64,000 nucleotides of DNA. Source: Escherichia coli (GTDB lineage Bacteria; Pseudomonadota; Gammaproteobacteria; Enterobacterales; Enterobacteriaceae). The stretch lies in the NCBI RefSeq assembly GCF_024223415.1, contig NZ_CP100502.1; one strand, given 5' to 3'. The notes beneath the pieces were generated by a model that searched no databases, was not told where the DNA came from, and worked only from the letters and a program-made list of their open reading frames with translations. Shown one piece after another: positions 1 to 26,155 of the stretch. Numbering within the stretch: position 1 is the first letter of the stretch; each line of letters begins with the position of its first letter. Both the position numbers and the translations under genes were made by a program.

Positions 1-1077
1 GTGTATAAATACACGGCACAATCGCTCCGCCATAAGCGACAGCTTGTGGCAGGTCTGAAGAATACTCCATATAACGCAGTACACTGGAGTCAGTTAGCAC
101 CCGAAGAGCAGATCCGTTTCTGGGAAGACTATGAAGCGGGAAGGGCGACCACTTTCCTGGTTGAACCGGAAAGGAAGCGCACGAAGCGTCGTCGTGGTGA
201 GCACTCCACCAAACCCAAATGCGAAAATCCGTCCTGGTATCGTCCTGAGCGCTATAAGGCGCTGAGCGGGCAGCTCGGGCACGCCTACAACCGTCTGGTG
301 AAAAAGGACCCGGTGACCGGCGAGCAGAGCCTGCGCATGCACATGTCTCTGCATCCTTTTTACGTGCAGAAACGAACGTATGCCGGTCGCAAATATGCTT
401 TCCGTCCGGAAAAACAACGCCTCCTCGATGCCGTCTGGCCGGTTCTGGTCAGCTTCAGTGATGCGGGCACACATACCGTAGGCATGAGTGTTTCCCGTCT
501 GGCCAGAGAAATCAGCCCGAAAGACAGCAAGGGGAAGGTTATTCCGGAACTGGAAGTGACGGTCTCCCGCCTTTCCCGTTTGCTGGCCGAACAGGTACGT
601 TTTGGTGTGCTGGGTGTTTCAGATGAAACCCTGTGGGACCGTGAAACCCGCCAGCGTCTGCCACGCTACGTCTGGATAACACCGGCAGGCTGGCAGATGC
701 TGGGCGTCGACATGGTAAAACTTCACGAACAGCAGCAGAAACGACTGCGTGAAAGTGAAATCCGCCAGCAGCTCATTCGGGAAGGTGTTCTGCGTGAGGA
801 TGAAGATATCTCCGTACATGCGGCCAGAAAACGCTGGTATCTGCAGCGCAGTCAGGATGCGCTGAAACACCGTCGTGCGAAAGCAGCAGCCAGTAAGCGC
901 GCCAGACGCCTGAAGAAACTGCCTGCCGACCAGCAGATTCATGAGATGGCAGAGTATCTCAGGAAGCGTCTGCCTCCGGATGAAGCCTATTTTTGTTCCG
1001 ATGACCATCTGAAGCGAATGGCCATCAGGGAGTTGCGTCAGCTTGAACTGACGCTGGCTGCCCCGCCACCGCACTAA
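1..1077 (+). CDS. Replication initiation protein, RepA/RepZ family (I-complex/IncFII-like replicon); ORF runs from the window edge so the true 5' end is probably upstream
   Basis: 358-aa ORF opening at position 1 with GTG; Arg/Lys-rich C-terminal half typical of RepA1/RepZ initiators; followed by hairpin-rich non-coding DNA; neighbouring backbone (cib, nikAB, trbABC, pnd) is IncI1-like. Confidence 0.55.
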   Translation: MYKYTAQSLRHKRQLVAGLKNTPYNAVHWSQLAPEEQIRFWEDYEAGRATTFLVEPERKRTKRRRGEHSTKPKCENPSWYRPERYKALSGQLGHAYNRLVKKDPVTGEQSLRMHMSLHPFYVQKRTYAGRKYAFRPEKQRLLDAVWPVLVSFSDAGTHTVGMSVSRLAREISPKDSKGKVIPELEVTVSRLSRLLAEQVRFGVLGVSDETLWDRETRQRLPRYVWITPAGWQMLGVDMVKLHEQQQKRLRESEIRQQLIREGVLREDEDISVHAARKRWYLQRSQDALKHRRAKAAASKRARRLKKLPADQQIHEMAEYLRKRLPPDEAYFCSDDHLKRMAIRELRQLELTLAAPPPH

Positions 1078-2965: not shown

Positions 2966-3003
2966 GGGGAGCCCGCAGAATTCGGAAAAAATCGTACGCT
3001 AAG
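2966..3003. repeat. 38-bp terminal inverted repeat of a Tn21-subgroup transposon (Tn1721/Tn501-like, contains GAATTC)
   Basis: GGGGAGCCCGCAGAATTCGGAAAAAATCGTACGCTAAG overlapping the tnpA stop codon, as in Tn21-family elements. Confidence 0.7.
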
Positions 3004-5965: not shown

Positions 5966-5968
5966 GTG

Positions 5969-6529
5969 TCAGTCGTCCGTGCGGAGGTACTGGTAGAGGG
6001 TTTCCCGGCTGATGTTGAACTCGCGGGCAAGCTGCGCCTTGGGCTCGCCGGCCGTCGCTCGCTGCCGCAGGGTAGCAGCCTGCTCATCGGACAGGGCTTT
6101 CTTGCGGCCCCGGTACGCGCCACGCTGCTTGGCCAAGGCGATGCCCTCACGCTGCCGCTCGCGGATCAGGGCGCGCTCGAACTCAGCGAAGGCCCCCATC
6201 ACCGACAGCATCAGGTTGGCCATCGGCGAGTCCTCGCCAGTGAACACCAGGCCCTCCTTCAGGAACTCGATGCGCACGCCGCGCTGAGTCAGCTTCTGTA
6301 CCAAGCGACGCAGGTCATCGAGGTTGCGGGCCAGCCGATCCATGCTGTGCACCACCACTGTATCGCCTTCGCGGACGAAGCTCAGCAGCGCTTCGAGCTG
6401 GGGGCGCTGGGTGTCCTTGCCCGATGCCTTGTCGGTGAACACCTTGCTCACCTGGGTTTGTTCCAGCTGGCGTTCCGGGTTCTGGTCAAAGCTGCTGACC
6501 CGGACGTAGCCGATGCGGTGCCCCTGCAC
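5969..6529 (-). CDS. tnpR: Serine resolvase of Tn21-subgroup transposon
   Basis: 186-aa ORF beginning MQGHRIGYVRVSS with catalytic serine motif and C-terminal HTH. Confidence 0.9.
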   Translation of the reverse strand: MQGHRIGYVRVSSFDQNPERQLEQTQVSKVFTDKASGKDTQRPQLEALLSFVREGDTVVVHSMDRLARNLDDLRRLVQKLTQRGVRIEFLKEGLVFTGEDSPMANLMLSVMGAFAEFERALIRERQREGIALAKQRGAYRGRKKALSDEQAATLRQRATAGEPKAQLAREFNISRETLYQYLRTDD

Positions 6530-6704
6530 GATGTCTCCTTGGTTGAAGGCGGCTTAAGTGCACTTTCTGTTCCGTTGTGCCTCAAAGCCCATTTCTGTCA
6601 GGCTGAAATCTATAACCTTCGCGGGCATGTGTCAAAAAATGGGAAAGCAGACTCTATTCTGACGAAGCGGCGCGGCCCTGCCTGACATCAAGTTAGGGTA
6701 TGCC
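6530..6704. promoter_or_regulatory. res (resolution) site region of the Tn21-like transposon
   Basis: Position between tnpR start and tnpM, as in Tn21; subsites not mapped. Confidence 0.5.
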
Positions 6705-7055
6705 TCAACCTGACGGCGGCGAATCACAAGCGTCCGGTTTGACGCTGGTTTCGGTCGCAGTGCTGGCCCGCGCCTGGAAGCGCTGATAGCACTCCAGCCC
6801 GCAGAAATGCTCCACGTACTCGGCCCCTTCCGGCGTGAAGGCGGCATCGAGCGGGATTTCCTTGCAGCACACGCAGCAACTGGTGCTCGGTTCATTGGCG
6901 TTCATGGTGGTGTTCCTCCATTGGTTGACGAAGCCGACGAAGGCCGCCGCCGGCATCGGCCTGGCGAACAGGAAACCCTGCACCGTGTCGCAACCCGCCT
7001 GCCGCAACCACGCAAGGCAGTCGGGTGTTTCCACACCCTCGGCTACCACCTCCAT
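6705..7055 (-). CDS. tnpM: TnpM (urf2M) of Tn21, start codon abutting integron IRi
   Basis: 116-aa C-terminal part of listed ORF beginning [21 protein letters not shown]; start lies directly against IRi at 7056. Confidence 0.6.
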
Positions 7056-7080
7056 TGTCGTTTTCAGAAGACGGCTGCAC
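7056..7080. repeat. IRi, 25-bp inverted repeat marking the intI1 end of a class 1 integron
   Basis: TGTCGTTTTCAGAAGACGGCTGCAC. Confidence 0.8.
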
Positions 7081-7257
7081 TGAACGTCAGAAGCCGACTG
7101 CACTATAGCAGCGGAGGGGTTGGATCCATCAGGCAACGACGGGCTGCTGCCGGCCATCAGCGGACGCAGGGAGGACTTTCCGCAACCGGCCGTTCGATGC
7201 GGCACCGATGGCCTTCGCGCAGGGGTAGTGAATCCGCCAGGATTGACTTGCGCTGCC

Positions 7258-8271
7258 CTACCTCTCACTAGTGAGGGGCGGCAGCGCATCAAGCGGTGAG
7301 CGCACTCCGGCACCGCCAACTTTCAGCACATGCGTGTAAATCATCGTCGTAGAGACGTCGGAATGGCCGAGCAGATCCTGCACGGTTCGAATGTCGTAAC
7401 CGCTGCGGAGCAAGGCCGTCGCGAACGAGTGGCGGAGGGTGTGCGGTGTGGCGGGCTTCGTGATGCCTGCTTGTTCTACGGCACGTTTGAAGGCGCGCTG
7501 AAAGGTCTGGTCATACATGTGATGGCGACGCACGACACCGCTCCGTGGATCGGTCGAATGCGTGTGCTGCGCAAAAACCCAGAACCACGGCCAGGAATGC
7601 CCGGCGCGCGGATACTTCCGCTCAAGGGCGTCGGGAAGCGCAACGCCGCTGCGGCCCTCGGCCTGGTCCTTCAGCCACCATGCCCGTGCACGCGACAGCT
7701 GCTCGCGCAGGCTGGGTGCCAAGCTCTCGGGTAACATCAAGGCCCGATCCTTGGAGCCCTTGCCCTCCCGCACGATGATCGTGCCGTGATCGAAATCCAG
7801 ATCCTTGACCCGCAGTTGCAAACCCTCACTGATCCGCATGCCCGTTCCATACAGAAGCTGGGCGAACAAACGATGCTCGCCTTCCAGAAAACCGAGGATG
7901 CGAACCACTTCATCCGGGGTCAGCACCACCGGCAAGCGCCGCGACGGCCGAGGTCTTCCGATCTCCTGAAGCCAGGGCAGATCCGTGCACAGCACCTTGC
8001 CGTAGAAGAACAGCAAGGCCGCCAATGCCTGACGATGCGTGGAGACCGAAACCTTGCGCTCGTTCGCCAGCCAGGACAGAAATGCCTCGACTTCGCTGCT
8101 GCCCAAGGTTGCCGGGTGACGCACACCGTGGAAACGGATGAAGGCACGAACCCAGTGGACATAAGCCTGTTCGGTTCGTAAGCTGTAATGCAAGTAGCGT
8201 ATGCGCTCACGCAACTGGTCCAGAACCTTGACCGAACGCAGCGGTGGTAACGGCGCAGTGGCGGTTTTCAT
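7258..8271 (-). CDS. intI1: Class 1 integron integrase
   Basis: 337-aa ORF beginning [49 protein letters not shown]. Confidence 0.95.
8156..8184 (+). promoter_or_regulatory. Integron cassette promoter Pc, weak variant (-35 TGGACA, 17-bp spacer, -10 TAAGCT); P2 inactive (14-bp spacer between TTGTTA and TACAGT)
   Basis: Hexamers read directly inside the intI1 coding region; no GGG insertion between TTGTTA and TACAGT near 8290. Confidence 0.7.
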
Positions 8272-8289
8272 GGCTTGTTATGACTGTTT

Positions 8290-8410
8290 TTTTGTACAGT
8301 CTATGCCTCGGGCATCCAAGCAGCAAGCGCGTTACGCCGTGGGTCGATGTTTGATGTTATGGAGCAGCAACGATGTTACGCAGCAGGGCAGTCGCCCTAA
8401 AACAAAGTTA
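8290..8410. other. attI1 recombination site region
   Basis: Sequence ending CCCTAAAACAAAGTTA at the cassette boundary upstream of dfrA1. Confidence 0.6.
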
Positions 8411-8427
8411 ACCTCTGAGGAAGAATT

Positions 8428-8901
8428 GTGAAACTATCACTAATGGTAGCTATATCGAAGAATGGAGTTATCGGGAATGGCCCTGATATTCCATGGAGTG
8501 CCAAAGGTGAACAGCTCCTGTTTAAAGCTATTACCTATAACCAATGGCTGTTGGTTGGACGCAAGACTTTTGAATCAATGGGAGCATTACCCAACCGAAA
8601 GTATGCGGTCGTAACACGTTCAAGTTTTACATCTGACAATGAGAACGTAGTGATCTTTCCATCAATTAAAGATGCTTTAACCAACCTAAAGAAAATAACG
8701 GATCATGTCATTGTTTCAGGTGGTGGGGAGATATACAAAAGCCTGATCGATCAAGTAGATACACTACATATATCTACAATAGACATCGAGCCGGAAGGTG
8801 ATGTTTACTTTCCTGAAATCCCCAGCAATTTTAGGCCAGTTTTTACCCAAGACTTCGCCTCTAACATAAATTATAGTTACCAAATCTGGCAAAAGGGTTA
8901 A
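8428..8901 (+). CDS. dfrA1: Trimethoprim-resistant dihydrofolate reductase DfrA1 (gene cassette)
   Basis: 157-aa ORF with GTG start, [52 protein letters not shown]. Confidence 0.9.
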
Positions 8902-8993
8902 CAAGTGGCAGCAACGGATTCGCAAACCTGTCACGCCTTTTGTACCAAAAGCCGCGCCAGGTTTGCGATCCGCTGTGCCAGGCGTTAAACATC
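8902..8993. other. attC (59-be) of the dfrA1 cassette
   Basis: Between dfrA1 stop and aadA1 start, ending GTTAAAC core. Confidence 0.5.
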
Positions 8994-9297
8994 ATGAGGG
9001 AAGCGGTGATCGCCGAAGTATCGACTCAACTATCAGAGGTAGTTGGCGTCATCGAGCGCCATCTCGAACCGACGTTGCTGGCCGTACATTTGTACGGCTC
9101 CGCAGTGGATGGCGGCCTGAAGCCACACAGTGATATTGATTTGCTGGTTACGGTGACCGTAAGGCTTGATGAAACAACGCGGCGAGCTTTGATCAACGAC
9201 CTTTTGGAAACTTCGGCTTCCCCTGGAGAGAGCGAGATTCTCCGCGCTGTAGAAGTCACCATTGTTGTGCACGACGACATCATTCCGTGGCGTTATC
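8994..9297 (+). pseudogene. aadA1: aadA1 streptomycin/spectinomycin adenylyltransferase, 3'-truncated (about 101 of 263 codons) by Tn2 IRR
   Basis: Begins MREAVIAEVSTQLSEVVGVIERHLEPTLLAVHLYGSAVDGGLKPHSDIDLL; reading frame runs straight into the Tn2 inverted repeat at 9298. Confidence 0.85.
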
Positions 9298-9335
9298 GGG
9301 GTCTGACGCTCAGTGGAACGAAAACTCACGTTAAG
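9298..9335. repeat. Tn2/Tn3 38-bp terminal inverted repeat (IRR, bla end)
   Basis: GGGGTCTGACGCTCAGTGGAACGAAAACTCACGTTAAG. Confidence 0.9.
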
Positions 9336-9444
9336 GGATTTTGGTCATGAGATTATCAAAAAGGATCTTCACCTAGATCCTTTTAAATTAAAAATGAAGT
9401 TTTAAATCAATCTAAAGTATATATGAGTAAACTTGGTCTGACAG

Positions 9445-10317
<873 letters not shown>

Positions 10318-10487
10318 TCAATATTATTGAAGCATTTACCAGGGTTATTGTCTCATGAGCGGATACATATTTGAATGTATTTAGAAAAATAAACAAATAG
10401 GGGTTCCGCGCACATTTCCCCGAAAAGTGCCACCTGACGTCTAAGAAACCATTATTATCATGACATTAACCTATAAAAATAGGCGTA

Positions 10488-11208
<721 letters not shown>

Positions 11209-14200
11209 ATGCCCGTTGACTTTCTGACCACTGAGCAGACTGAAAGCTATGGCAGATTCACCGGTGAACCGGATGAGCTTCAGCTGGCACGATATTTTCA
11301 CCTTGATGAAGCAGACAAGGAATTTATCGGAAAAAGCAGAGGTGATCACAACCGTCTGGGCATTGCCCTGCAAATTGGATGTGTCCGTTTTCTGGGCACC
11401 TTCCTCACCGATATGAATCATATTCCTTCCGGCGTCCGGCATTTTACCGCCAGACAGCTCGGGATTCGTGATATCACCGTTCTTGCAGAATACGGTCAGA
11501 GGGAAAATACCCGCCGTGAGCATGCAGCGCTGATACGTCAGCACTATCAGTATCGTGAATTTGCCTGGCCCTGGACATTTCGCCTTACCCGTCTTTTATA
11601 TACCCGGAGCTGGATAAGCAACGAACGTCCTGGCCTGCTTTTCGATCTGGCGACAGGGTGGCTTATGCAACATCGTATTATTCTCCCCGGAGCCACTACG
11701 CTGACCCGGTTGATTTCAGAGGTAAGGGAAAAGGCGACGTTGCGCCTGTGGAACAAACTGGCACTGATACCGTCAGCCGAACAGCGTTCACAGCTGGAGA
11801 TGCTGCTGGGGCCAACTGATTGCAGCCGCCTGTCTTTACTGGAATCACTGAAAAAGGGCCCTGTGACCATCAGTGGTCCGGCGTTTAATGAAGCAATTGA
11901 ACGCTGGAAAACTCTGAACGATTTTGGCCTGCATGCTGAAAACCTGAGTACACTCCCGGCTGTGCGCCTGAAAAATCTCGCACGTTATGCTGGTATGACT
12001 TCGGTGTTCAATATTGCCAGGATGTCACCGCAGAAAAGGATGGCGGTTCTGGTTGCCTTTGTCCTTGCATGGGAAACGCTGGCGCTGGATGATGCATTGG
12101 ACGTTCTGGACGCCATGCTGGCCGTTATCATCCGTGACGCCAGAAAGATTGGGCAGAAAAAACGGCTCCGCTCGCTGAAGGATCTGGATAAATCTGCATT
12201 GGCGCTCGCCAGCGCATGTTCGTACCTGCTGAAAGAAGAAACACCGGACGAATCGATTCGTGCTGAGGTGTTCAGCTACATCCCAAGGCAAAAGCTGGCT
12301 GAAATCATCACGCTTGTCCGTGAAATTGCCCGGCCCTCAGACGATAATTTTCATGAAGAAATGGTGGAGCAGTACGGGCGCGTTCGTCGTTTCCTGCCCC
12401 ATCTGCTGAATACCGTTAAATTTTCATCCGCACCTGCCGGGGTTACCACTCTGAATGCCTGTGACTACCTCAGCCGGGAGTTCAGCTCACGGCGGCAGTT
12501 TTTTGACGACGCACCAACGGAAATTATCAGTCGGTCATGGAAACGGCTGGTGATTAACAAGGAAAAACATATCACCCGCAGGGGATACACGCTCTGCTTT
12601 CTCAGTAAACTGCAGGATAGTCTGAGGCGGAGGGATGTCTACGTTACCGGCAGTAACCGGTGGGGAGATCCTCGTGCAAGATTACTACAGGGTGCTGACT
12701 GGCAGGCAAACCGGATTAAGGTTTATCGTTCTTTGGGGCACCCGACAGACCCGCAGGAAGCAATAAAATCTCTGGGTCATCAGCTTGATAGTCGTTACAG
12801 ACAGGTTGCTGCACGTCTTTGCGAAAATGAGGCTGTCGAACTCGATGTTTCTGGCCCGAAGCCCCGGTTGACAATTTCTCCCCTCGCCAGTCTTGATGAG
12901 CCGGACAGTCTGAAACGACTGAGCAAAATGATCAGTGATCTACTCCCTCCGGTGGATTTAACGGAGTTGCTGCTCGAAATTAACGCCCATACCGGATTTG
13001 CTGATGAGTTTTTCCATGCTAGTGAAGCCAGTGCCAGAGTTGATGATCTGCCCGTCAGCATCAGCGCCGTGCTGATGGCTGAAGCCTGCAATATCGGTCT
13101 GGAACCACTGATCAGATCAAATGTTCCTGCACTGACCCGACACCGGCTGAACTGGACAAAAGCGAACTATCTGCGGGCTGAAACTATCACCAGCGCTAAT
13201 GCCAGACTGGTTGATTTTCAGGCAACGCTGCCACTGGCACAGATATGGGGTGGAGGAGAAGTGGCATCTGCAGATGGAATGCGCTTTGTTACGCCAGTCA
13301 GAACAATCAATGCCGGACCGAACCGCAAATACTTTGGTAATAACAGAGGGATCACCTGGTACAACTTTGTGTCCGATCAGTATTCCGGCTTTCATGGCAT
13401 CGTTATACCGGGGACGCTGAGGGACTCTATCTTTGTGCTGGAAGGTCTTCTGGAACAGGAGACCGGGCTGAATCCAACCGAAATTATGACCGATACAGCA
13501 GGTGCCAGCGAACTTGTCTTTGGCCTTTTCTGGCTGCTGGGATACCAGTTTTCTCCACGCCTGGCTGATGCCGGTGCTTCGGTTTTCTGGCGAATGGACC
13601 ATGATGCCGACTATGGCGTGCTGAATGATATTGCCAGAGGGCAATCAGATCCCCGAAAAATAGTCCTTCAGTGGGACGAAATGATCCGGACCGCTGGCTC
13701 CCTGAAGCTGGGCAAAGTACAGGTTTCAGTGCTGGTCCGTTCATTGCTGAAAAGTGAACGTCCTTCCGGACTGACTCAGGCAATCATTGAAGTGGGGCGC
13801 ATCAACAAAACGCTGTATCTGCTTAATTATATTGATGATGAAGATTACCGCCGGCGCATTCTGACCCAGCTTAATCGGGGAGAAAGTCGCCATGCCGTTG
13901 CCAGAGCCATCTGTCACGGTCAAAAAGGTGAGATAAGAAAACGATATACCGACGGTCAGGAAGATCAACTGGGCACACTGGGGCTGGTCACTAACGCCGT
14001 CGTGTTATGGAACACTATTTATATGCAGGCAGCCCTGGATCATCTCCGGGCGCAGGGTGAAACACTGAATGATGAAGATATCGCACGCCTCTCCCCGCTT
14101 TGCCACGGACATATCAATATGCTCGGCCATTATTCCTTCACGCTGGCAGAACTGGTGACCAAAGGACATCTGAGACCATTAAAAGAGGCGTCAGAGGCAG

Positions 14201-14214
14201 AAAACGTTGCTTAA
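11209..14214 (+). CDS. tnpA: Tn2/Tn3 transposase
   Basis: About 1001 aa from MPVDFLTTEQTESYGRFTGEPDEL; stop codon lies inside the terminal repeat. Confidence 0.95.
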   Translation: MPVDFLTTEQTESYGRFTGEPDELQLARYFHLDEADKEFIGKSRGDHNRLGIALQIGCVRFLGTFLTDMNHIPSGVRHFTARQLGIRDITVLAEYGQRENTRREHAALIRQHYQYREFAWPWTFRLTRLLYTRSWISNERPGLLFDLATGWLMQHRIILPGATTLTRLISEVREKATLRLWNKLALIPSAEQRSQLEMLLGPTDCSRLSLLESLKKGPVTISGPAFNEAIERWKTLNDFGLHAENLSTLPAVRLKNLARYAGMTSVFNIARMSPQKRMAVLVAFVLAWETLALDDALDVLDAMLAVIIRDARKIGQKKRLRSLKDLDKSALALASACSYLLKEETPDESIRAEVFSYIPRQKLAEIITLVREIARPSDDNFHEEMVEQYGRVRRFLPHLLNTVKFSSAPAGVTTLNACDYLSREFSSRRQFFDDAPTEIISRSWKRLVINKEKHITRRGYTLCFLSKLQDSLRRRDVYVTGSNRWGDPRARLLQGADWQANRIKVYRSLGHPTDPQEAIKSLGHQLDSRYRQVAARLCENEAVELDVSGPKPRLTISPLASLDEPDSLKRLSKMISDLLPPVDLTELLLEINAHTGFADEFFHASEASARVDDLPVSISAVLMAEACNIGLEPLIRSNVPALTRHRLNWTKANYLRAETITSANARLVDFQATLPLAQIWGGGEVASADGMRFVTPVRTINAGPNRKYFGNNRGITWYNFVSDQYSGFHGIVIPGTLRDSIFVLEGLLEQETGLNPTEIMTDTAGASELVFGLFWLLGYQFSPRLADAGASVFWRMDHDADYGVLNDIARGQSDPRKIVLQWDEMIRTAGSLKLGKVQVSVLVRSLLKSERPSGLTQAIIEVGRINKTLYLLNYIDDEDYRRRILTQLNRGESRHAVARAICHGQKGEIRKRYTDGQEDQLGTLGLVTNAVVLWNTIYMQAALDHLRAQGETLNDEDIARLSPLCHGHINMLGHYSFTLAELVTKGHLRPLKEASEAENVA

Positions 14215-14247
14215 CGTGAGTTTTCGTTCCACTGAGCGTCAGACCCC
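14210..14247. repeat. Tn2/Tn3 38-bp terminal inverted repeat (IRL, tnpA end)
   Basis: CTTAACGTGAGTTTTCGTTCCACTGAGCGTCAGACCCC. Confidence 0.9.
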
Positions 14248-14252
14248 GCATA
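14248..14252. repeat. 5-bp target site duplication GCATA (right copy)
   Basis: Matches 2896-2900. Confidence 0.8.
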
Positions 14253-14660
14253 CAGCAGATTCTCCACCGCCAGACGGCACACGTCATTCAGCAGCCAGCG
14301 GTTGCTTTCGAACACCGGCCACAGCGTGTCCGGCAGGGTGAAGACCAGGTGCACCCAGTCGCAGTCAGGAAGACGATTCAGCTGTGTCGCTATCCACAGG
14401 TCTGTGGCCTTTTTTCCGCAGGACGGGCAGGCACGGCTGCCACATGAGTTAGTGACGTATCTGACGTGGGGGCACTCAGGTTTATCGCAGTTGTATTCCT
14501 TCACACCCAGTATCCGCGTGCCGCAGGCCAGCATTTTTGTGACAGCCTCAACCTCGATATCGCGCAGGCCGCCCGCATCCAGGAAGGATGTCCAGCACTG
14601 GTTGGCTGTGAACAGGCGTTTCAGCGGTCGGGGCTGAAAATCACCACCACTTCGGGTCAT
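14248..14660 (-). pseudogene. tnpA: IS91-family transposase, N-terminal zinc-binding segment of the gene split by the Tn2-bounded insertion
   Basis: CPHVRYVTNSCGSRACPSCGKK zinc-ribbon-like motif; frame joins 2100-2900 across the target duplication. Confidence 0.75.
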
Positions 14661-14913
14661 CCGCCTTCATCTCCGCTTCAGTTTCGTATAAATCAAAACG
14701 ACGGCAGGTATGGCAGAACGTGACGTATTCGTACGGTGAATCCGGGTACATTTTGTGGAAGGTTTCCCAGAAACAGACCGTACAGGAGGGATGACCGGCG
14801 ATAAAGTCTGTAAATACAGACTGATAAGGGTGATTATTGGCCCTGGCGACGGCTTTCAGAACCTCTTTCACCATTCTGGTGTGGACTTTCTGGTGCTCCA
14901 GGTTGTGTGACAT
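14641..14913 (-). CDS. Cys/His-rich ORF upstream of and overlapping the IS91-family tnpA start in another frame (upstream accessory ORF or frameshifted N-terminus)
   Basis: 90-aa ORF with HPSCTVCFWETFHKMY...CHTCRRF; overlaps tnpA by 20 nt in a different frame. Confidence 0.35.
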   Translation of the reverse strand: MSHNLEHQKVHTRMVKEVLKAVARANNHPYQSVFTDFIAGHPSCTVCFWETFHKMYPDSPYEYVTFCHTCRRFDLYETEAEMKADDPKWW

Positions 14914-15127
14914 GGGAACTCATTCTGGATGGTTACTCTGAAAGCTCATATTCTGCCACACCACGATTTGCAGCCGCCAGGCTGCCGTGGTTCATGGTTA
15001 GGTTTTGCGATAGTATATTTACGAGCTGATTAAGGTTTGGCATAGTGTGGTTCGTAAGAAAAATTACTATTATGCCTTGTCCTTAGTCAGCTTTTTTGTT
15101 TTTTGTCGTGTACAGAGAGAAGCCCCC

Positions 15128-15943
15128 ATGAATAAATCGCTCATCATTTTCGGCATCGTCAACATAACCTCGGACAGTTTCTCCGATGGAGGCCGGTATC
15201 TGGCGCCAGACGCAGCCATTGCGCAGGCGCGTAAGCTGATGGCCGAGGGGGCAGATGTGATCGACCTCGGTCCGGCATCCAGCAATCCCGACGCCGCGCC
15301 TGTTTCGTCCGACACAGAAATCGCGCGTATCGCGCCGGTGCTGGACGCGCTCAAGGCAGATGGCATTCCCGTCTCGCTCGACAGTTATCAACCCGCGACG
15401 CAAGCCTATGCCTTGTCGCGTGGTGTGGCCTATCTCAATGATATTCGCGGTTTTCCAGACGCTGCGTTCTATCCGCAATTGGCGAAATCATCTGCCAAAC
15501 TCGTCGTTATGCATTCGGTGCAAGACGGGCAGGCAGATCGGCGCGAGGCACCCGCTGGCGACATCATGGATCACATTGCGGCGTTCTTTGACGCGCGCAT
15601 CGCGGCGCTGACGGGTGCCGGTATCAAACGCAACCGCCTTGTCCTTGATCCCGGCATGGGGTTTTTTCTGGGGGCTGCTCCCGAAACCTCGCTCTCGGTG
15701 CTGGCGCGGTTCGATGAATTGCGGCTGCGCTTCGATTTGCCGGTGCTTCTGTCTGTTTCGCGCAAATCCTTTCTGCGCGCGCTCACAGGCCGTGGTCCGG
15801 GGGATGTCGGGGCCGCGACACTCGCTGCAGAGCTTGCCGCCGCCGCAGGTGGAGCTGACTTCATCCGCACACACGAGCCGCGCCCCTTGCGCGACGGGCT
15901 GGCGGTATTGGCGGCGCTGAAAGAAACCGCAAGAATTCGTTAA
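15128..15943 (+). CDS. sul2: Sulfonamide-resistant dihydropteroate synthase Sul2
   Basis: 271 aa from MNKSLIIFGIVNITSDSFSDGGRYLAPDAAIAQARKLMAEGADVIDLG. Confidence 0.95.
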   Translation: MNKSLIIFGIVNITSDSFSDGGRYLAPDAAIAQARKLMAEGADVIDLGPASSNPDAAPVSSDTEIARIAPVLDALKADGIPVSLDSYQPATQAYALSRGVAYLNDIRGFPDAAFYPQLAKSSAKLVVMHSVQDGQADRREAPAGDIMDHIAAFFDARIAALTGAGIKRNRLVLDPGMGFFLGAAPETSLSVLARFDELRLRFDLPVLLSVSRKSFLRALTGRGPGDVGAATLAAELAAAAGGADFIRTHEPRPLRDGLAVLAALKETARIR

Positions 15944-16029
15944 CTGCACATTCGGGATATTTCTCTATATTCGCGGTTCAGCAGGCATGTCCCCTTTGAG
16001 GGCGACCCGACGACAGGATAATCGACCTT

Positions 16030-16275
16030 ATGGTGCGCAAATATTTCGGCACAGACGGTATTCGTGGCAAAGCCAACGAAGGCGCGATGACGGCGGAAAC
16101 CGCCTTGCGCGTCGGCATGGCGGCTGGCCGTGTCTTTCGTCGCGGTGACCACCGCCATCGTGTCGTGATCGGCAAGGATACGCGCCTGTCGGGCTATATG
16201 CTTGAACCCGCGCTCACAGCCGGTTTCACCTCGATGGGCATGGACGTATTCCTTTTTGGCCCGCTGCCGACAACG
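16030..16275 (+). pseudogene. glmM: Truncated phosphoglucosamine mutase fragment, the usual sul2-associated relic
   Basis: [36 protein letters not shown]... then loss of similarity. Confidence 0.8.
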
Positions 16276-16507
16276 TATAGGAAGAATAAACGCCCTTTTC
16301 ACCCAAGTCCAACAGCTTTGGACCGCAGTTGACTCTTTCGACACCCCTGCGATGCAACCCAATCCGGCTGACGGGGAGCCAGCAACGCTGAAAATTTACC
16401 CTCCTCTTTCCCACTAGCGGCTCCTTTTCCGACAACCAGCACGGCGGATCCCTGCCGCGGCGCTGTGAACGCAGCATTTTGATTGGTATCGTTGGCCTTC
16501 AGGCTCG

Positions 16508-17644
16508 TCAGTCAAACAGACCCAGGAGCAGCTCAGCCGGTGGCGCCCGGCTTTCGGGTAACGCCCTGGTCCCGCTGGTTTCGGCTTTGTGCTTCAGGTG
16601 ATCAAGGATCTGCTTGATCACTATAGGGTCTTCAATGCAGGCGATGACTTTCATGGCGCCGCCGCAGCCGCTGCAGGTCTCGATGTCGATATTGAAAACA
16701 CGCTTGAGCCGTTGCGCCCATGTCATCGACGCTCGCCGTTGTGCTGGTGTTGCCGGTTCATCAGCCACCCTGACCTTGTTGCCCCTGCCCCGTTTTGCCG
16801 GCGTGACCAACGCCCGGTGCCGACTGTTGGGTGCGAACACCCCGTGGAAGCGGGTTAGGTTGACTCTGGGCTTCGGTACCAGGGCGGCCAGCCTTGCAAT
16901 GAAATCCAATGGTTCGAAAATGACGTGCGTGGTGCCGTCCCGGTACGGCGTCTTGAGCTGGTAGCGCACGTTGCCGCCTCGTGTTAACGACAGCCGCTTC
17001 TCGGATACCGCCGGGCGGCTGATGTACCGGCACAGCCGTTCGAGCTTCTTGCGTTCATCGGCCCTGGCCGCCACGCCGGCGTGCAGGCTGGACCCGGCTA
17101 CCTTGCCAATCCCGTCACCGAACGGATCACCACTGGTCGGCAGAGTTTGCAAAGTGAACACCTTTCGCCCCGCCTGTGAACCGACAGCGATACGGTAAGT
17201 GATCGAGTGCCCCAGCAGGGGTGTCATCGGGTCGTCATCCACCGCATCCGAGGCCAGATAGCTGTTTTCGACATCCCGTTCCAGCAGGCCTTGCCGTTCC
17301 AGATAGCGACCCACCCGGTGGGCGATGGTGTGCGTCAGCTGGGTGAGCTCTGGGGTGGTCGGCGCCTTGACCCAGCGGAAACGCGCTGAGCCGTGGGATT
17401 GCTCGACATACACACCGTCGAGAAACAGCATGTGGAAGTGAACATTCAGATTGAGCGCCGATCCAAAACGCTGGATCAGGGTGACCGCGCCCGTCTTGGC
17501 CACTTGGTGGGTATGGCCCGCTTTCTTGACCAGGTGCGTGGCAATGACGCGGTAAACGATGCCCAGCACCCACCCCATGATCTCGGGCCGGCTGGCAAAC
17601 AGGAAACGCAGCTGAAACGGGAAGCTCAACACCCACTGACGCAT
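16508..17644 (-). CDS. IS91-family ISCR2-like transposase, probably lacking the N-terminal zinc-binding region
   Basis: 378-aa ORF with HFH (HUH) and YxxxY motifs and ISCR-type C-terminus IDIETCSGCGGAMKVIACIEDPIVIKQILDHL; adjacent to sul2 and truncated glmM. Confidence 0.7.
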   Translation of the reverse strand: MRQWVLSFPFQLRFLFASRPEIMGWVLGIVYRVIATHLVKKAGHTHQVAKTGAVTLIQRFGSALNLNVHFHMLFLDGVYVEQSHGSARFRWVKAPTTPELTQLTHTIAHRVGRYLERQGLLERDVENSYLASDAVDDDPMTPLLGHSITYRIAVGSQAGRKVFTLQTLPTSGDPFGDGIGKVAGSSLHAGVAARADERKKLERLCRYISRPAVSEKRLSLTRGGNVRYQLKTPYRDGTTHVIFEPLDFIARLAALVPKPRVNLTRFHGVFAPNSRHRALVTPAKRGRGNKVRVADEPATPAQRRASMTWAQRLKRVFNIDIETCSGCGGAMKVIACIEDPIVIKQILDHLKHKAETSGTRALPESRAPPAELLLGLFD

Positions 17645-17971
17645 GGGTTGTTCGTCCTGGACGGCGAACCCGGCAAAGCTCCTGTAACATTGCTTCTTCC
17701 TGTTTTGTTAGCGTGACTGTCACGCTAGCGCCTTCCTCTTTGAGTCGCGCGCGGCGCCGGGCCTGGCGAATACGGGCTTGTTCACGCTGTCGGTCATTCA
17801 TATTTTTCCTCCACGTGACTGTCACGTTGAATTAAACTGGGCATTACCCCTGCGGGGCCGTTCTGCCGTGCTGCGCATCGAGCCGCTACGCGTCTCGCCC
17901 CTTCGGGCGGCGGCCACTAATGCCTCCGGCCTGCGGCCTCCGCGCTTCGCTTGTGACGATATCTGAATCGT

Positions 17972-19562: not shown

Positions 19563-20036
19563 GTGAGAGACAAAACCAGGGAGGCCATGCGGCTTTTTTT
19601 AGGCGGCAGGTGCTACACGGCTGAAAAACTTGAAAAGGATTATCTGGCTGAAGTGGCTAATTACAGTAACGACCGCTGGGAAGCACCGCAACGTGCCTCA
19701 CGCCTGGCTGCCAGCGTAAAGCGTTACAAGACATCAGAAATGCTGCGCTTTATTTTTGCTACCATTGCCTACGATCCCGATCCAGATTTAACCCCGCTAA
19801 CTGTGAGACGTTTGTGCAAGGCATTGTTCGGCAGAACCGGAAGCCAGTGGCTGGTTGTTGAAGTTTTTGGGGAGAAGGGGCGTCAGCACCGCAGCGCGGA
19901 CAGCAATCCGGAGATGGTGGAAAAAATGGCTGCCAGATATCGTCATGCCGCCGAACTACACTGGTCCGCAACGCTGGCAGAAATTGAACGGGTAAAGCGG
20001 CTTTATCAGACGAAAATTAAGAAATCCAAAAAATAA
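19563..20036 (+). CDS. Hypothetical protein bracketed by two copies of a long palindrome
   Basis: 157-aa ORF (GTG, or ATG at 19587); no recognisable domain. Confidence 0.5.
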   Translation: MRDKTREAMRLFLGGRCYTAEKLEKDYLAEVANYSNDRWEAPQRASRLAASVKRYKTSEMLRFIFATIAYDPDPDLTPLTVRRLCKALFGRTGSQWLVVEVFGEKGRQHRSADSNPEMVEKMAARYRHAAELHWSATLAEIERVKRLYQTKIKKSKK

Positions 20037-20404: not shown

Positions 20405-20778
20405 GTAAAACCAATAATACTATAGCTAAAAAATAGTTACTTTTCTGTATCACCCTGTCTCTCTCTGCTTTTTCATGGCTACTGTCATATTTATGTCTGT
20501 TGCGCGGTTTTGTTACTTTTTCATGACCGAACCCGAAATTTTGCGCGTCAATAAGAGACGTTGTGTAAACTCAGTCCTTTTATCTGGCAGGTTAACCCCT
20601 ATCAATCTTAGGATGAAACCACGCCATCCTCTGTTTGCCTGGTTATTAATTTCATAAAGACGATTGTTTTCCTCTCGTAGTTTTGTCCACTCTAAACAAA
20701 GTGTTATATCATCCAGTTCTGTGATGTGTTTCACTTTTCCATTGACAGTTACAGTGTTTATTCCATTTCCTGTGAGCA

Positions 20779-21312
20779 TCATCTTATGCCTTTTTTATCT
20801 TCATTTGGGACCGTGCTTTTCTTCGGAGTATCACTATTCGTTAACTGCTGTTTATCAATAAAATTCCTGATGTTATCAAGTGCTTCCTTTGTTTTTAGAA
20901 TGCGCTTGATATCCATTTCATCCCGCCCGGTCATTCTTTTTCCGGACAAAAGACGCTCAAGAAGCTCCTGTTTCGCATCAGGAGAATCTTTGGCGAGATC
21001 CATCAGGTTAAGCAAATCTTCACGATCGAGAGGAAAGAAGTATTTTACAAAATACTTGAAAAGCGAAAGAAAGTAGTATGCTGTCCATGCAATACAGAAA
21101 CCGATTCTGAGAAACTCATTGTCAACTATACAGAAATACAGGTATACAATCAGGAGAATAGGTAAAATCCATAATACTATAGCTAAAAAAATATATACGG
21201 GGATCAGGCGTCTGTATGCCCGTTCATGTTTATTCAGGATGAATAAAATCTTCTCCGCTTCTGAATCACACATAACATTCTCTTCCCATTTTTTCTGATA
21301 CGTAATGTCCAC
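20779..21312 (-). CDS. Predicted two-helix membrane protein
   Basis: 177-aa AT-rich ORF; hydrophobic stretch LIPVYIFLAIVLWILPILLIVYLYFCIV; contains one copy of a roughly 90-bp direct repeat. Confidence 0.5.
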   Translation of the reverse strand: MDITYQKKWEENVMCDSEAEKILFILNKHERAYRRLIPVYIFLAIVLWILPILLIVYLYFCIVDNEFLRIGFCIAWTAYYFLSLFKYFVKYFFPLDREDLLNLMDLAKDSPDAKQELLERLLSGKRMTGRDEMDIKRILKTKEALDNIRNFIDKQQLTNSDTPKKSTVPNEDKKGIR

Positions 21313-21328: not shown

Positions 21329-21931
21329 TTATTGCCCAGAAATATTCTCCTGCTGTGCCTGCGTCCTGAGCCACTTTTGTTCTAATGTCGCCAGTCTGCG
21401 ACCGGCACTCTGTGCTTCAGAGTCTGAGACCTGCCCTTTGGGGTGACCATCCAGGCCATAACGTGGGACGCCGGCGACAGCTGTCCGCTGCAGATATACG
21501 CGGCGGGATGTGATGCAGGACACTGCACAGAGCCATTCGTCCATGGTCAGTTCTGTCTCCGGGTGTTCTGCCAGAAATGCCGAAATATCATTGCTTATGC
21601 CAATTTTCAGGGGAATAAATCCACCACCTTCAGCACGAAGATGAGGAAACAGGGCCTTTATTTTTTCCACGCACTCGTGAGTATACTCACGGGTCCAGTG
21701 GGAGGGACGTGGAAAACGGTGTCTTTTCTTTTTCTTCTTCCTGGCTGGCGCTTCGGGGATATGTGTTTCGACGGCAGATGAATTTATTCCGGCGGGGGCT
21801 GATTCTGCCGTCTGTTCAGTAAATACAGGTGCGATAATATCTGTTTTTTCGGATAAGGACGGTGGCGAAAAAGTACGACGTTTTTTCACCACAATGACGG
21901 GAGTTTTCCTTTCTTCCTGATTTTTTCCCAT
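21329..21931 (-). CDS. FinO/ProQ-domain RNA-binding protein (FopA-like)
   Basis: 200-aa ORF; basic N-terminus; C-terminal region resembling the FinO fold (KIKALFPHLRAEGGGFIPLKIGISNDISAFLAEHPE). Confidence 0.55.
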   Translation of the reverse strand: MGKNQEERKTPVIVVKKRRTFSPPSLSEKTDIIAPVFTEQTAESAPAGINSSAVETHIPEAPARKKKKKRHRFPRPSHWTREYTHECVEKIKALFPHLRAEGGGFIPLKIGISNDISAFLAEHPETELTMDEWLCAVSCITSRRVYLQRTAVAGVPRYGLDGHPKGQVSDSEAQSAGRRLATLEQKWLRTQAQQENISGQ

Positions 21932-22287
21932 AAATACCTCGGCTGGCTGGTTTTACTCTTTAATAATATCACAATCCATAAATTAGTAAATTTCCCATCA
22001 GGTGATTTTTCATGGCTAATAAGTCCATTCTCTGAATATTTATACTCGAGGTAGTTACAGTTATGGCGTGACAGTCGAATTGATATTCTACTGAACCCTG
22101 ACAGAAACATGGTTGATATATTCTATCACTTTAATGTTGTCATGATATAAATAAAAACAATTCATTTGAAAGGATATCAGAAGAAGATATCGGGGCGCAC
22201 AGTTCATCTCTGCCTTTGTTTCATGGGGGGTTCTTTGTATATTTTACTTACTGTTTAAGCATGTACATAAGGAGTGCTTTCATTATG

Positions 22288-23631
22288 CCAATGATACTTG
22301 TAAAGAAGAATCCCCGGGGCAAAGTGATTCGGGAGCTTAGCAGTGAGGAAGAGACTGCAGTAAAGACGGTCTGTGGACTGAAAAGGCCAGCAACCATGGC
22401 ACAACATAACCTGGCCAATGATCTTCTCCGGGAAATGCGTGAGTATGATGCATGGTTACAGTGTGACTGTATTCCGGGAGATTCGCCGGCCATGAATTTT
22501 GCTGCTCTTAAAAACAATACGGGTACTCTTTATCTGTCCAGTTTTAATCATGAGCATGCACCTGAATGCCCCATGTATCGTCAGTTATCCGGAAATGAAG
22601 AGGAAACATCCTTCGGAGCAAGCCGGCATCCCGTTAGCACCCGTATAAATTACAGAAACTTTTTACCACCTGATGACAGTAATTCTGTTATCAGACTGCA
22701 GGCCCGCTCTGCTTACCATAATGGTGAGCGCTCCTCCGTTCGCAAGAAACGTCCGCGCCTTGGCCGTTTACTCCTGTCGCTTATTGAAGATGCAGGGCTG
22801 AATAAACTGGATTCCCTGGCTAATCCCCGTATCCGGACTAATTATCGTGAGTGTCTTGATGCCATACGGCAGGTTACACTACAGCAGGAGTATATTCGGG
22901 GAAGAGCCTTATCTGAAATTATCCATTTCCGGCCAGGAATGTCTGAAAGGTCTCAGGAGCGGTTAATGGAAACGCTGGAGAATTCAGAACGACACTGGCC
23001 TGCCAGAAGAAAGCATATGTTCTTTCAGATTTTTATGGCGCAGCACATCTGTCGTGATGCTGTGGAAATTCACTGGGCGAACGGTAATATTCAGGTCATC
23101 AGACCTGTGCGGGGGATCAGTATTAATGGTGAAGCGCAGGGCGGAATACGTCCCCCTTACTGGGTTATTCTTGCTTTTTGCCGGAGTGCCGATGGCAGAA
23201 TCATCTGCAGTGAAGGGTATGCTCATGCTCTTTATCAACTGACATGTCCGGTGCCTGTGGACAGCAAACTGGAACGAAACACGCTCACTGCTCTTCTGAA
23301 TGTGGCCAGCTGGCTTAAAAGAAAGCCAGGTACGCCGGAATTAAGTCTGGAAAGGCCCCTGTTTGATACAGAAGTTTATGTTAATGGTGAAAAGAAATAT
23401 GTACTGCCGGATTTCATTGTCACAGCAAGGGCTCCTGACGGAAAGACGGCCAGAGTGGTCATCGAAACGATGGGATATGAAGACAGTGATTACTGCGCGA
23501 GAAAATCCAGGCAGCATACCGGCATGAAGCAGATTGGTGTTCTGCATACCGATCCACCGAAATGGCTGGATAACGATCATCCCCCTTTTAAGAAACATAT
23601 GTACGGTGTTTTTATGCATCTCAGGTACTGA
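22288..23631 (+). CDS. Hypothetical 447-aa protein, Cys/His-rich N-terminus and possible PD-(D/E)xK-like C-terminal motif
   Basis: Start MPMILVKKNPRG with SD; CDCIPG...HEHAPEC; C-terminal LPDFIV...VVIETMGYEDSDYCARK. Confidence 0.6.
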   Translation, partial: PMILVKKNPRGKVIRELSSEEETAVKTVCGLKRPATMAQHNLANDLLREMREYDAWLQCDCIPGDSPAMNFAALKNNTGTLYLSSFNHEHAPECPMYRQLSGNEEETSFGASRHPVSTRINYRNFLPPDDSNSVIRLQARSAYHNGERSSVRKKRPRLGRLLLSLIEDAGLNKLDSLANPRIRTNYRECLDAIRQVTLQQEYIRGRALSEIIHFRPGMSERSQERLMETLENSERHWPARRKHMFFQIFMAQHICRDAVEIHWANGNIQVIRPVRGISINGEAQGGIRPPYWVILAFCRSADGRIICSEGYAHALYQLTCPVPVDSKLERNTLTALLNVASWLKRKPGTPELSLERPLFDTEVYVNGEKKYVLPDFIVTARAPDGKTARVVIETMGYEDSDYCARKSRQHTGMKQIGVLHTDPPKWLDNDHPPFKKHMYGVFMHLRY

Positions 23632-23909: not shown

Positions 23910-25790
23910 ATGTCTGACCCTGTACGTATTACAAATCCCGGTGCAGAATCGCTGGGATATGATTCAGATGGCCATGAAATTATGGCCGTTGATATTTATG
24001 TAAACCCTCCACGTGTCGATGTCTTTCATGGTACCCCGCCTGCATGGAGTTCCTTCGGGAACAAAACCATCTGGGGTGGAAACGAGTGGGTCGATGATTC
24101 CCCAACCCGAAGTGATATCGAAAAAAGGGACAAGGAAATCACAGCGTACAAAAACACGCTCAGCGCGCAGCAGAAAGAGAATGAGAATAAGCGTACTGAA
24201 GCTGGAAAACGCCTTTCTGCGGCAATTGCTGCAAGGGAAAAAGATGAAAACACACTGAAAACACTCCGTGCCGGAAACGCAGATGCCGCTGATATTACAC
24301 GACAGGAGTTCAGACTCCTGCAGGCAGAGCTGAGAGAATACGGATTCCGTACTGAAATCGCCGGATATGATGCCCTCCGGCTGCATACAGAGAGCCGGAT
24401 GCTGTTTGCTGATGCTGATTCTCTTCGTATATCTCCCCGCGAGGCCAGGTCGTTAATCGAACAGGCTGAAAAACGGCAGAAGGATGCGCAGAACGCAGAC
24501 AAGAAGGCCGCTGATATGCTTGCTGAATACGAGCGCAGAAAAGGTATTCTGGACACGCGGTTGTCAGAGCTGGAAAAAAATGGCGGGGCAGCCCTTGCCG
24601 TTCTTGATGCACAACAGGCCCGTCTGCTCGGGCAGCAGACACGGAATGACAGGGCCATTTCAGAGGCCCGGAATAAACTCAGTTCGGTGACGGAATCGCT
24701 TAAGACGGCCCGTAATGCATTAACCAGAGCTGAACAACAGCTGACGCAACAGAAAAACACGCCTGACGGCAAAACGATAGTTTCCCCTGAAAAATTCCCG
24801 GGGCGTTCATCAACAAATCATTCTATTGTTGTGAGTGGTGATCCGAGGTTTGCCGGTACGATAAAAATCACAACCAGCGCGGTCATCGATAACCGTGCAA
24901 ACCTGAATTATCTTCTGACCCATTCCGGTCTGGACTATAAACGCAATATTCTGAATGACCGGAATCCGGTGGTGACAGAGGATGTGGAAGGTGACAAGAA
25001 AATTTATAATGCTGAAGTTGCTGAATGGGATAAGTTACGGCAACGATTGCTTGATGCCAGAAATAAAATCACCTCTGCTGAATCTGCGATAAATTCGGCG
25101 AGAAATAACGTCAGTGCCAGAACAAATGAACAAAAGCATGCAAATGACGCTCTTAATGCCCTGTTGAAGGAAAAAGAGAATATCCGTAGCCAGCTTGCTG
25201 ACATCAATCAGAAAATAGCTGAAGAGAAAAGAAAAAGGGATGAAATAAATATGGTAAAGGATGCCATAAAACTCACCTCTGATTTCTACAGAACGATATA
25301 TGATGAGTTCGGTAAACAAGCATCCGAACTTGCTAAGGAGCTGGCTTCTGTATCTCAAGGGAAACAGATTAAGAGTGTGGATGATGCACTGAACGCTTTT
25401 GATAAATTCCGTAATAATCTGAACAAGAAATATAACATACAAGATCGCATGGCCATTTCTAAAGCCCTGGAAGCTATTAATCAGGTCCATATGGCGGAGA
25501 ATTTTAAGCTGTTCAGTAAGGCATTTGGTTTTACCGGAAAAGTTATTGATCGTTATGATGTTGCTGTGGAGTTACAAAAGGCTGTAAAAACGGACAACTG
25601 GCGTCCATTTTTTGTAAAACTTGAATCACTGGCAGCAGGAAGAGCTGCTTCAGCAGTTACAGCATGGGCGTTTTCCGTCATGCTGGGAACCCCTGTAGGT
25701 ATTCTGGGTTTTGCAATTATTATGGCGGCTGTGAGTGCGCTTGTTAATGATAAGTTTATTGAGCAGGTCAATAAACTTATTGGTATCTGA
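23910..25790 (+). CDS. cib: Pore-forming colicin of the Ia/Ib group (immunity partner favours Ib)
   Basis: 626-aa ORF MSDPVRITNPGAESLGYDSDGHEIMAVDIYVNPPRVDVFHG...; hydrophobic channel domain at C-terminus. Confidence 0.9.
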   Translation: MSDPVRITNPGAESLGYDSDGHEIMAVDIYVNPPRVDVFHGTPPAWSSFGNKTIWGGNEWVDDSPTRSDIEKRDKEITAYKNTLSAQQKENENKRTEAGKRLSAAIAAREKDENTLKTLRAGNADAADITRQEFRLLQAELREYGFRTEIAGYDALRLHTESRMLFADADSLRISPREARSLIEQAEKRQKDAQNADKKAADMLAEYERRKGILDTRLSELEKNGGAALAVLDAQQARLLGQQTRNDRAISEARNKLSSVTESLKTARNALTRAEQQLTQQKNTPDGKTIVSPEKFPGRSSTNHSIVVSGDPRFAGTIKITTSAVIDNRANLNYLLTHSGLDYKRNILNDRNPVVTEDVEGDKKIYNAEVAEWDKLRQRLLDARNKITSAESAINSARNNVSARTNEQKHANDALNALLKEKENIRSQLADINQKIAEEKRKRDEINMVKDAIKLTSDFYRTIYDEFGKQASELAKELASVSQGKQIKSVDDALNAFDKFRNNLNKKYNIQDRMAISKALEAINQVHMAENFKLFSKAFGFTGKVIDRYDVAVELQKAVKTDNWRPFFVKLESLAAGRAASAVTAWAFSVMLGTPVGILGFAIIMAAVSALVNDKFIEQVNKLIGI

Positions 25791-25807
25791 CACATAATGA
25801 TGCCCTT

Positions 25808-26155
25808 TCATTTTCCTGAAAGGGCTTTGCAGAGTATAAAAATTAAGTAAATGGCAACCACAGGAACTGATATAACGAAACAGAATAATTCAAATATTGC
25901 AGTTAAGCTTCCGCCAACTGGATTTGTAAAGAAGTCTTTTTGCCAGAATTCTTTCCCTGTAAACCTTATTACCATTTTCTGTATTATCCTCATTGAAAAA
26001 GGAAAAGTAATGGCACTGATAATGCATCCGATGAACGCATAAAACATTCTTGCATTTTCCTGGTTATCTTTCCATCCCAGATAAAAAACTGTAAGAATAA
26101 TGAGGATTGGTATCAGGCTTTTCAGTAAATACTTTACAGATATATCCAGTTTCAT
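25808..26155 (-). CDS. imm: Colicin Ib-type immunity protein (inner membrane)
   Basis: 115-aa hydrophobic ORF convergent with the colicin gene. Confidence 0.8.
   Translation of the reverse strand: MKLDISVKYLLKSLIPILIILTVFYLGWKDNQENARMFYAFIGCIISAITFPFSMRIIQKMVIRFTGKEFWQKDFFTNPVGGSLTAIFELFCFVISVPVVAIYLIFILCKALSGK

Follow-up and report, generated by a model that had tools for sequence, protein, structure and literature searches.

The product of the open reading frame at 21329..21931 is, judged by its sequence and gene position, the published FopA (YafB), an RNA chaperone of ColIb-P9-type IncI1 plasmids, and we consider it highly likely that the gene encodes a chaperone of the Inc RNA that limits RepZ and IncI1 copy number. 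FopA is already known, as it is published, named in RefSeq, and present on one of the best-studied plasmid backbones; its function would be transferred to the protein described here from FopA of Salmonella Typhimurium SL1344, from which it differs by three residues. Throughout, "the window" is the whole 64,000-nt stretch of Escherichia coli DNA that was analysed.

The gene at 21329..21931 is fopA of an IncI1 plasmid

Positions 21329..21931 correspond exactly to an ORF of 200 aa from ATG to stop, as claimed in the initial annotation, which gave no strand; the ORF is on the minus strand and encodes a protein of 22.4 kDa with a pI of 9.5. A GAGG Shine-Dalgarno sequence (21937..21940, minus strand), read from the upstream sequence, lies 7 nt 5' of the ATG. 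A possible sigma-70 promoter with an extended TG (TTTACT-16-TATTAT; 21963..21990, minus strand) matches by consensus only, and because promoter-like sites in this region are no more numerous than in shuffled sequences, we regard the match as weak. A pseudogene or chance ORF was ruled out by conservation and synonymous substitution, and also because homologues are present in 3260 plasmid records.

The assignment of this CDS as fopA (= yafB) is based on the ORF, its Pfam domain (see below), and comparison with annotated plasmids. Specifically, E. coli pF1005-1 (NZ_OY754354.1) matches the window at 100% identity over 25 kb starting with base 1, and its CDS table has WP_000517695.1 at 21329-21931, matching the window coordinates. 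The 2.5 kb around fopA are 100% identical at the DNA level to many IncI1 plasmids including ColIb-P9 (NC_002122), the Shigella sonnei plasmid P9 that serves as the reference IncI1 plasmid; the yafB locus of ColIb-P9 encodes the same WP_000517695.1 under the RefSeq product name "ProQ/FINO family protein", and there is no difference at the gene level. In ColIb-P9, the ORF is flanked by two genes for hypothetical proteins on the yafA side and by yagA on the other, and it lies upstream of the genes for colicin Ib and its immunity protein. The initial annotation had called the product a candidate and had pointed to a FopA protein on a related Salmonella colicin plasmid. On SL1344 pCol1B9, FopA, formerly YafB, is described as a 22-kDa protein encoded between yafA and yagA, in which Tyr146 and Arg157 are conserved within the FinO domain (Gerovac et al. 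2020, RNA 26:1448; PMC7491321). Using RefSeq NC_017718, the twin of HE654725 (the accession given in PMC7491321), we found that the pCol1B9 protein is identical to the window protein in 197/200 residues (98.5%) over the full length, with P23L, S113N, and T189M (relative to SL1344) as the only substitutions; both basic N-terminal stretches are shared, and Tyr146 (21494-21496, minus strand) and Arg157 (21461-21463, minus strand) occupy exactly those positions. Because of this identity, the shared gene position, and the presence of Tyr146/Arg157, this comparison was right, and the FopA of that plasmid is more than a relative: the gene is fopA itself, in the same context, and the label "candidate" was too cautious for a protein that is already characterised.

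The neighbourhood is shared as well, with the order yafA-yafB-yagA-cib and the colicin Ib and immunity genes on pCol1B9. In the window, yafA (164 aa; 20779-21273, minus strand) is an annotated CDS downstream of fopA, followed by an annotated CDS of 88 aa (20513-20779, minus strand), the start/stop codons of which overlap with those of yafA; yagA (448 aa; 22285-23631, plus strand) and an ORF of 157 aa (19563-20036, plus strand) are conserved neighbours of fopA. None of these four neighbours has a match in Pfam. In a terminator scan, the minus strand showed no terminator-like site in the fopA-yafA interval; because fopA is not separated from the downstream ORFs by such a site, co-transcription is possible, and fopA, yafA, and the 88-aa ORF may form an operon. 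A colicin gene (626 aa) and a convergent gene for a "colicin 1B immunity protein" are annotated at 23910-26155, and this pairing confirms that the plasmid is of the ColIb type, in line with the earlier suggestion of an I-complex plasmid; the colicin accession is WP_001283341.1 here versus WP_010891256.1 in ColIb-P9.

Different from pCol1B9, the plasmid described here is an E. coli-type IncI1 plasmid with a resistance insertion of ~16 kb (1929-17949, relative to ColIb-P9) between repZ and yacA. This insertion contains a TnAs1 transposase and resolvase, Tn3 with blaTEM-1, sul2, and IS91/ISVsa3 fragments as well as a class 1 integron with intI1-dfrA1 and a truncated aadA-like cassette. Between intI1 and dfrA1, Rfam RF02912 (AAC_AAD_leader/attI site) matches at 8361-8432 (plus strand; 70.6 bits), corresponding to the attI1 site of the integron. 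At the other end of the window, matches to the sok antitoxin RNA (62490-62647, plus strand; 134 bits) and AgrB (63272-63359, minus strand; 55 bits) probably represent post-segregational killing loci of the hok/sok type in the leading/maintenance region of the plasmid.

FopA homologues are widespread on conjugative plasmids

In a tblastn search of PLSDB, the 3260 plasmid records with FopA homologues were mainly conjugative plasmids of Escherichia, Salmonella, Klebsiella, and Shigella (2219 records from Escherichia versus 501 from Salmonella). While 476 of the 3260 records are at least 99% identical, identity in the remainder tails off gradually to ~27%. The ~60-kb plasmids with 35% identity to FopA are IncI2 plasmids, and in the one example checked, p3543_mcr-1, a 198-aa protein of the PcnR type is encoded ~2 kb from repA. 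PcnR (YaeC) of IncI2 plasmids such as pHNSHP45 also has 198 aa, a FinO domain, and the same architecture (Yang et al. 2021, NAR; PMC8053102), and a PcnR-type protein is 36% identical to FopA across aa 8-176.

FopA has a FinO/ProQ domain with a conserved 3'-end pocket and an altered N-cap

The FinO/ProQ domain of FopA comprises aa 84-186 (Pfam envelope; 21374..21682, minus strand). It matches PF04352 with 47.7 bits (E=1.7e-12; model positions 4-102/109), well above the gathering score of 27 bits, in the very profile search for which the initial annotation had proposed that a missing match would refute its reading. By phmmer against PDB sequences, the best matches among solved structures were the N-terminal domain of ProQ (5NB9; E=1.5e-5) and Legionella RocC (7RGS/T/U); with a clade profile, the ProQ match improved to E=1e-8, and below ProQ and RocC this search returned chance matches to MHC class I only. 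An AlphaFold2 model based on an alignment of 23 clade members was of moderate quality (mean pLDDT 65), with aa ~78-198 at 70-90; in this model, five helices (81-94, 116-122, 130-140, 143-150, and 170-198) and a β-hairpin (strands 156-158 and 164-167) match the mostly α-helical FinO fold. When the model was compared with the PDB using Foldseek, ranks 1-24 were all FinO-domain proteins (RocC, FinO 1DVO, Neisseria NMB1681, and Legionella Lpp1663), with probabilities of 0.8-1.0 and TM scores of 0.43-0.51 normalised to the target. The likeness to FinO 1DVO was reached via this fold comparison only (E=5e-4) and was not found by pairwise sequence search. Thus, the resemblance of the C-terminal half to the FinO fold that had been noticed in the sequence is supported by profile, sequence, and fold comparisons alike.

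We also considered whether the protein is FinO or ProQ proper. It scored 25 bits with the NCBIfam FinO model NF010317 (cut-off 136) and 24.9 bits with the ProQ model NF003434 (cut-off 127); ProQ proper is recognised by a score exceeding the equivalog cut-off together with a Tudor-like domain at the C-terminus, and FopA ends 14 aa past the FinO domain. Because both scores are far below the cut-offs, FopA is a member of the ProQ/FinO family but neither FinO nor ProQ. ProQ and RocC are chromosomally encoded; both carry additional sequence at the C-terminus, a Tudor-like domain in the global binder ProQ and a long extension in RocC. The extension of FopA is N-terminal, and its N-cap lacks the basic residues. 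FopA is the sole FinO-domain ORF in the 64-kb window.

To place FopA residues on the RocC numbering, we used the HMMER (phmmer) alignment, which recovered all of the residues discussed in PMC9674577 (I51, G52, S70-R75, T82, R83, Y87, and R97). In RocC, Gly52, Tyr87, and Arg97 have roles in the pocket for the 3'-terminal nucleotide (PMC9674577), and FopA Gly111, Tyr146, and Arg157 align with these three residues. The pocket is kept in FopA (I110, G111, T141, S142, Y146, and R157, of which I110, G111, and T141 correspond to RocC I51, G52, and T82), and ProQ and RocC share with FopA the PLKIGI turn as well as the Thr, Tyr, and Arg. In the alignment of the FopA clade, R157 never varies, and G111 and Y146 hardly do.

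The N-cap is different. In RocC, Lys71, Lys73, and Arg75 bind the hairpin backbone, the Arg is ~80% conserved in the family, and the R75D substitution lowers binding more than 100-fold (PMC9674577). The equivalent segment of FopA is T-M-D-E-W-L (aa 129-134; 21530..21547, minus strand), aligned with S-K-S-K-L-R (S70-R75) of RocC and S-K-T-Q-L-R of ProQ; it retains the capping Thr129 and has Met130, Glu132, and Leu134 in place of K71, K73, and R75. Similarly, FinO has the N-cap Arg121 where FopA has Leu134. D131, E132, and W133 are nearly invariant across the clade. The missing basic N-cap marks FopA as a variant of the PF04352 family and does not exclude it from the family. Because FopA lacks the basic N-cap residues of RocC, ProQ, and FinO, its binding mode may differ from the canonical one; the altered N-cap suggests a modified grip on the hairpin, possibly offset by the adjacent poly-lysine patch, and such a grip fits the weak Kd of ~1 µM and the loop protection reported for FopA.

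The basic N-terminal extension contains a conserved motif

The initial annotation had described the N-terminus as strongly basic, and this is the case: aa 1-83 contain 18 K/R versus 9 D/E (pI 10.4), while the charge of aa 84-186 is close to neutral. The basic residues include two patches, KKRR (aa 16-19) and RKKKKKRHR (aa 64-72); the latter, recognised from sequence and charge count, is part of a segment R-K-K-K-K-K-R-H-R-F-P-R (aa 64-75; 21707..21742, minus strand) that abuts the FinO domain on its N-terminal side. In the AlphaFold2 model, aa 1-5 and 24-63 have pLDDT values below 50 and the basic N-terminus is predicted to be disordered.

Within this extension, the basic motif K-T-P-V-I-V-V-K-K-R-R (aa 9-19; 21875..21907, minus strand) lies in a predicted-disordered region (pLDDT <55) and is nearly invariant in the clade alignment. 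It is identical in 11/11 residues in the IncI2 PcnR-type protein (CDS 2939-3535), for which overall identity to FopA is just 36%, so that this short, predicted-disordered segment is conserved more strongly between the two proteins than the FinO domain. Because 5/11 codons of the motif differ synonymously between the two genes, selection acts on the peptide.

Based on these observations, we propose, as a tentative idea that we rate as less likely than not, that proteins of the FopA/PcnR clade keep the 3' pocket, have replaced the basic N-cap K-x-K-x-R by the acidic/aromatic D-E-W, and would make the backbone contacts and promote annealing via the disordered basic extension, chiefly KTPVIVVKKRR. 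If this were true, the N-terminal peptide rather than the FinO domain would set the choice of long perfect hairpins of the Inc type as well as the chaperone activity. Plasmid copy number would then depend on this peptide, and so, in consequence, would resistance-gene dosage on this plasmid.

FinO of F-like plasmids (1DVO) resembles FopA in that it is plasmid-borne, combines a FinO domain with a basic N-terminal extension, and is a chaperone for a cis-antisense RNA/mRNA pair; its target is FinP/traJ, i.e. conjugation, as opposed to replication for FopA. Because the record of the F plasmid that we used has no finO annotation and the ORF passes the end of the record, we obtained the first 132 aa of FinO by translation. 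Its N-terminus, MTEQKRPVLTLKRK, weakly resembles KTPVIVVKKRR. BLASTP of FopA against the 132-aa fragment aligned a 12-residue N-terminal motif only (E=0.35), and hhalign of the FopA-clade profile against the fragment gave a probability of 0.4%; based on these values, the likeness is weak and not significant, and we dropped a common FinO/FopA motif as a case of homology.

The shared FinO domain and this faint likeness at the N-terminus, together with the GenBank labels "FinO bacterial conjugation repressor" and "conjugation repressor protein" (LC567083 yafB and LC567064 ydbA), could be taken to indicate that FopA represses conjugative transfer as a fertility inhibitor of the FinO type. We consider this extremely improbable: the labels are carried over from the family name, the score with the NCBIfam FinO model is far below its cut-off, the Rfam scan of the window gave no match to FinP or traJ, tra transcripts are absent from the top FopA ligands listed in PMC7491321, and FinO of Salmonella does not bind pCol1B9 RNAs, the two target sets being distinct. 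Likewise, the earlier suggestion that the protein could act on conjugation transcripts found no support. Of note, yafB/ydbA of the IncI complex are labelled conjugation repressors in LC567083, LC567054, and LC567064, and for FopA this label is unsupported.

FopA likely acts on the Inc/repY/repZ control region

The replication control region lies at the start of the window and just before it. Positions 1-1928 of the window correspond to ColIb-P9 410-2337 and include the 3' part of the repY leader ORF (1-58, plus strand; 29 codons with the ATG at ColIb-P9 378 and the stop codon at window positions 56-58) and repZ, the replication initiator gene (46-1077, plus strand; annotated as repA and identified by the ColIb-P9 match). 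The repY-repZ mRNA, encoded from window 1..1077, is the target of Inc and FopA. Because the window begins inside repY, the Inc gene itself lies outside: on the circular plasmid, the Inc stem-loop (ColIb-P9 301-349) is located 61-109 nt before window base 1, which is base 1 of records that were rotated to start inside repY and thereby cut off the Inc gene. We therefore examined the Inc region on matching complete records (pF1005-1, ColIb-P9, and pCol1B9). Over the 180 nt preceding base 1, pF1005-1 differs from ColIb-P9 and pCol1B9 by a single base, which lies outside the stem-loop, and the stem-loop region of pF1005-1 is that of pCol1B9. The antisense strand folds into a predicted 19-bp hairpin (-33.4 kcal/mol, z=-5.9) followed by UUUU, which fits the published description of Inc. 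At gathering thresholds, the Rfam scan of the whole window gave no family for the Inc RNA or the repZ leader and matched only sok, the attI/aminoglycoside-leader motif, and AgrB-like sequences.

The published experiments with SL1344 FopA connect the protein to this region. As reported in PMC7491321, FopA sediments in lighter gradient fractions once treated with RNase, and its RIP-seq reads are dominated by Inc, a ~70-nt cis-antisense RNA of the repZ leader; repZ mRNA, which is of low abundance, and a small number of chromosomal RNAs are enriched as well. The same study reports that purified FopA has an apparent Kd of ~1 µM for Inc, for a fragment of the repZ leader, and for the complex formed beforehand, and that it accelerates Inc-repZ complex formation ~sevenfold and shields Inc from RNases A and T1, including at the loop residue G46. 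Accordingly, the part of the initial annotation that envisaged action on the antisense RNA controlling replication agrees with what that study gives as the main ligand of FopA, the Inc RNA of the repZ system. The affinity of ~1 µM is weak and does not distinguish Inc from the repZ leader or the duplex, a point against a model with Inc as the target in that it does not by itself account for specificity.

Combining these data with our sequence comparisons, we suggest the following sequence of events. The C-terminal FinO domain would grip the 3' end of the Inc terminator hairpin via the Gly111, Tyr146, and Arg157 pocket, while the disordered basic N-terminal extension would supply the annealing activity. 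In this way, FopA would protect Inc and speed the annealing of Inc to the repY-repZ mRNA leader, and this pairing would block translation of repY as well as formation of the pseudoknot needed for repZ translation; with less RepZ initiator, plasmid copy number would be held down. A 2023 review similarly describes that Inc and FopA disrupt the pseudoknot required for repZ translation and that the plasmid thereby limits its copy number (PMC9977716). The copy-number outcome for FopA in that review is an extrapolation: in the text of PMC7491321, the word "deletion" has no occurrences and "copy number" refers to protein copies only, with no plasmid copy-number measurement, and our literature search for a later functional study of FopA, or for a fopA deletion or copy-number experiment with any IncI1 plasmid, found none. 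We thus infer an effect on copy number in vivo, drawing in part on the analogy with PcnR, and the division of labour within FopA is likewise our inference.

For PcnR, the effect is demonstrated: this protein represses the replication initiator, and deletion of pcnR raises IncI2 copies from ~1 to ~10, i.e. repression is tenfold in vivo (PMC8053102). According to published work, PcnR binds directly to the stem-loop of the repR leader, independently of the antisense RNA, and IncI2 plasmids, unlike IncI1 plasmids, lack the pseudoknot. We therefore considered that FopA could repress replication mainly by itself binding a stem-loop in the repY/repZ leader and blocking translation of the leader peptide without involvement of the antisense RNA, a possibility for IncI1 that was raised by the PcnR authors. 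The 36% identity and the exactly shared N-terminal motif are in agreement with such a mode, as are the tenfold change in copy number brought about by PcnR on its stem-loop, the binding of the repZ leader alone with a Kd equal to that for Inc, and the enrichment of repZ mRNA in the coIP reported in PMC7491321. By contrast, PMC7491321 also reports that Inc rather than repZ dominates the RIP-seq reads and that FopA accelerates Inc-repZ pairing, and control in IncI1 is based on the pseudoknot that IncI2 lacks. We consider this mode unlikely as the explanation for FopA; the two modes are not mutually exclusive and both could operate.

The chromosomal RNAs among the FopA ligands raise the question of whether the main selected role of FopA is to bind host transcripts and tune the host for the plasmid, with Inc as a secondary ligand. 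The other top RIP-seq targets listed in PMC7491321 are chromosomal (STnc1590, STnc700, and mgtM), FopA is reported there to build up in late stationary phase and under SPI-2-inducing conditions, and the review in PMC9977716 speculates on expanding cross-talk with the core genome. These targets are specific to Salmonella, but the gene is carried mostly by E. coli plasmids, as is evident from the counts above; moreover, FopA and Inc/repZ are reported in PMC7491321 to have the same phylogenetic distribution, and relatives of FopA are located close to the replicon. We regard a primarily host-directed role as quite improbable and conclude that chaperoning of Inc, with limitation of RepZ and copy number, is the function that best describes fopA.

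Implications for IncI-complex plasmids

The annotation of 21329..21931 should read fopA/yafB, Inc-RNA chaperone, and not "conjugation repressor". Genes of the FopA type are carried by thousands of resistance and colicin plasmids of the IncI complex, and, as for the related PcnR, their products probably contribute to the control of copy number and thereby to the fitness cost of these plasmids and the dosage of their resistance genes.
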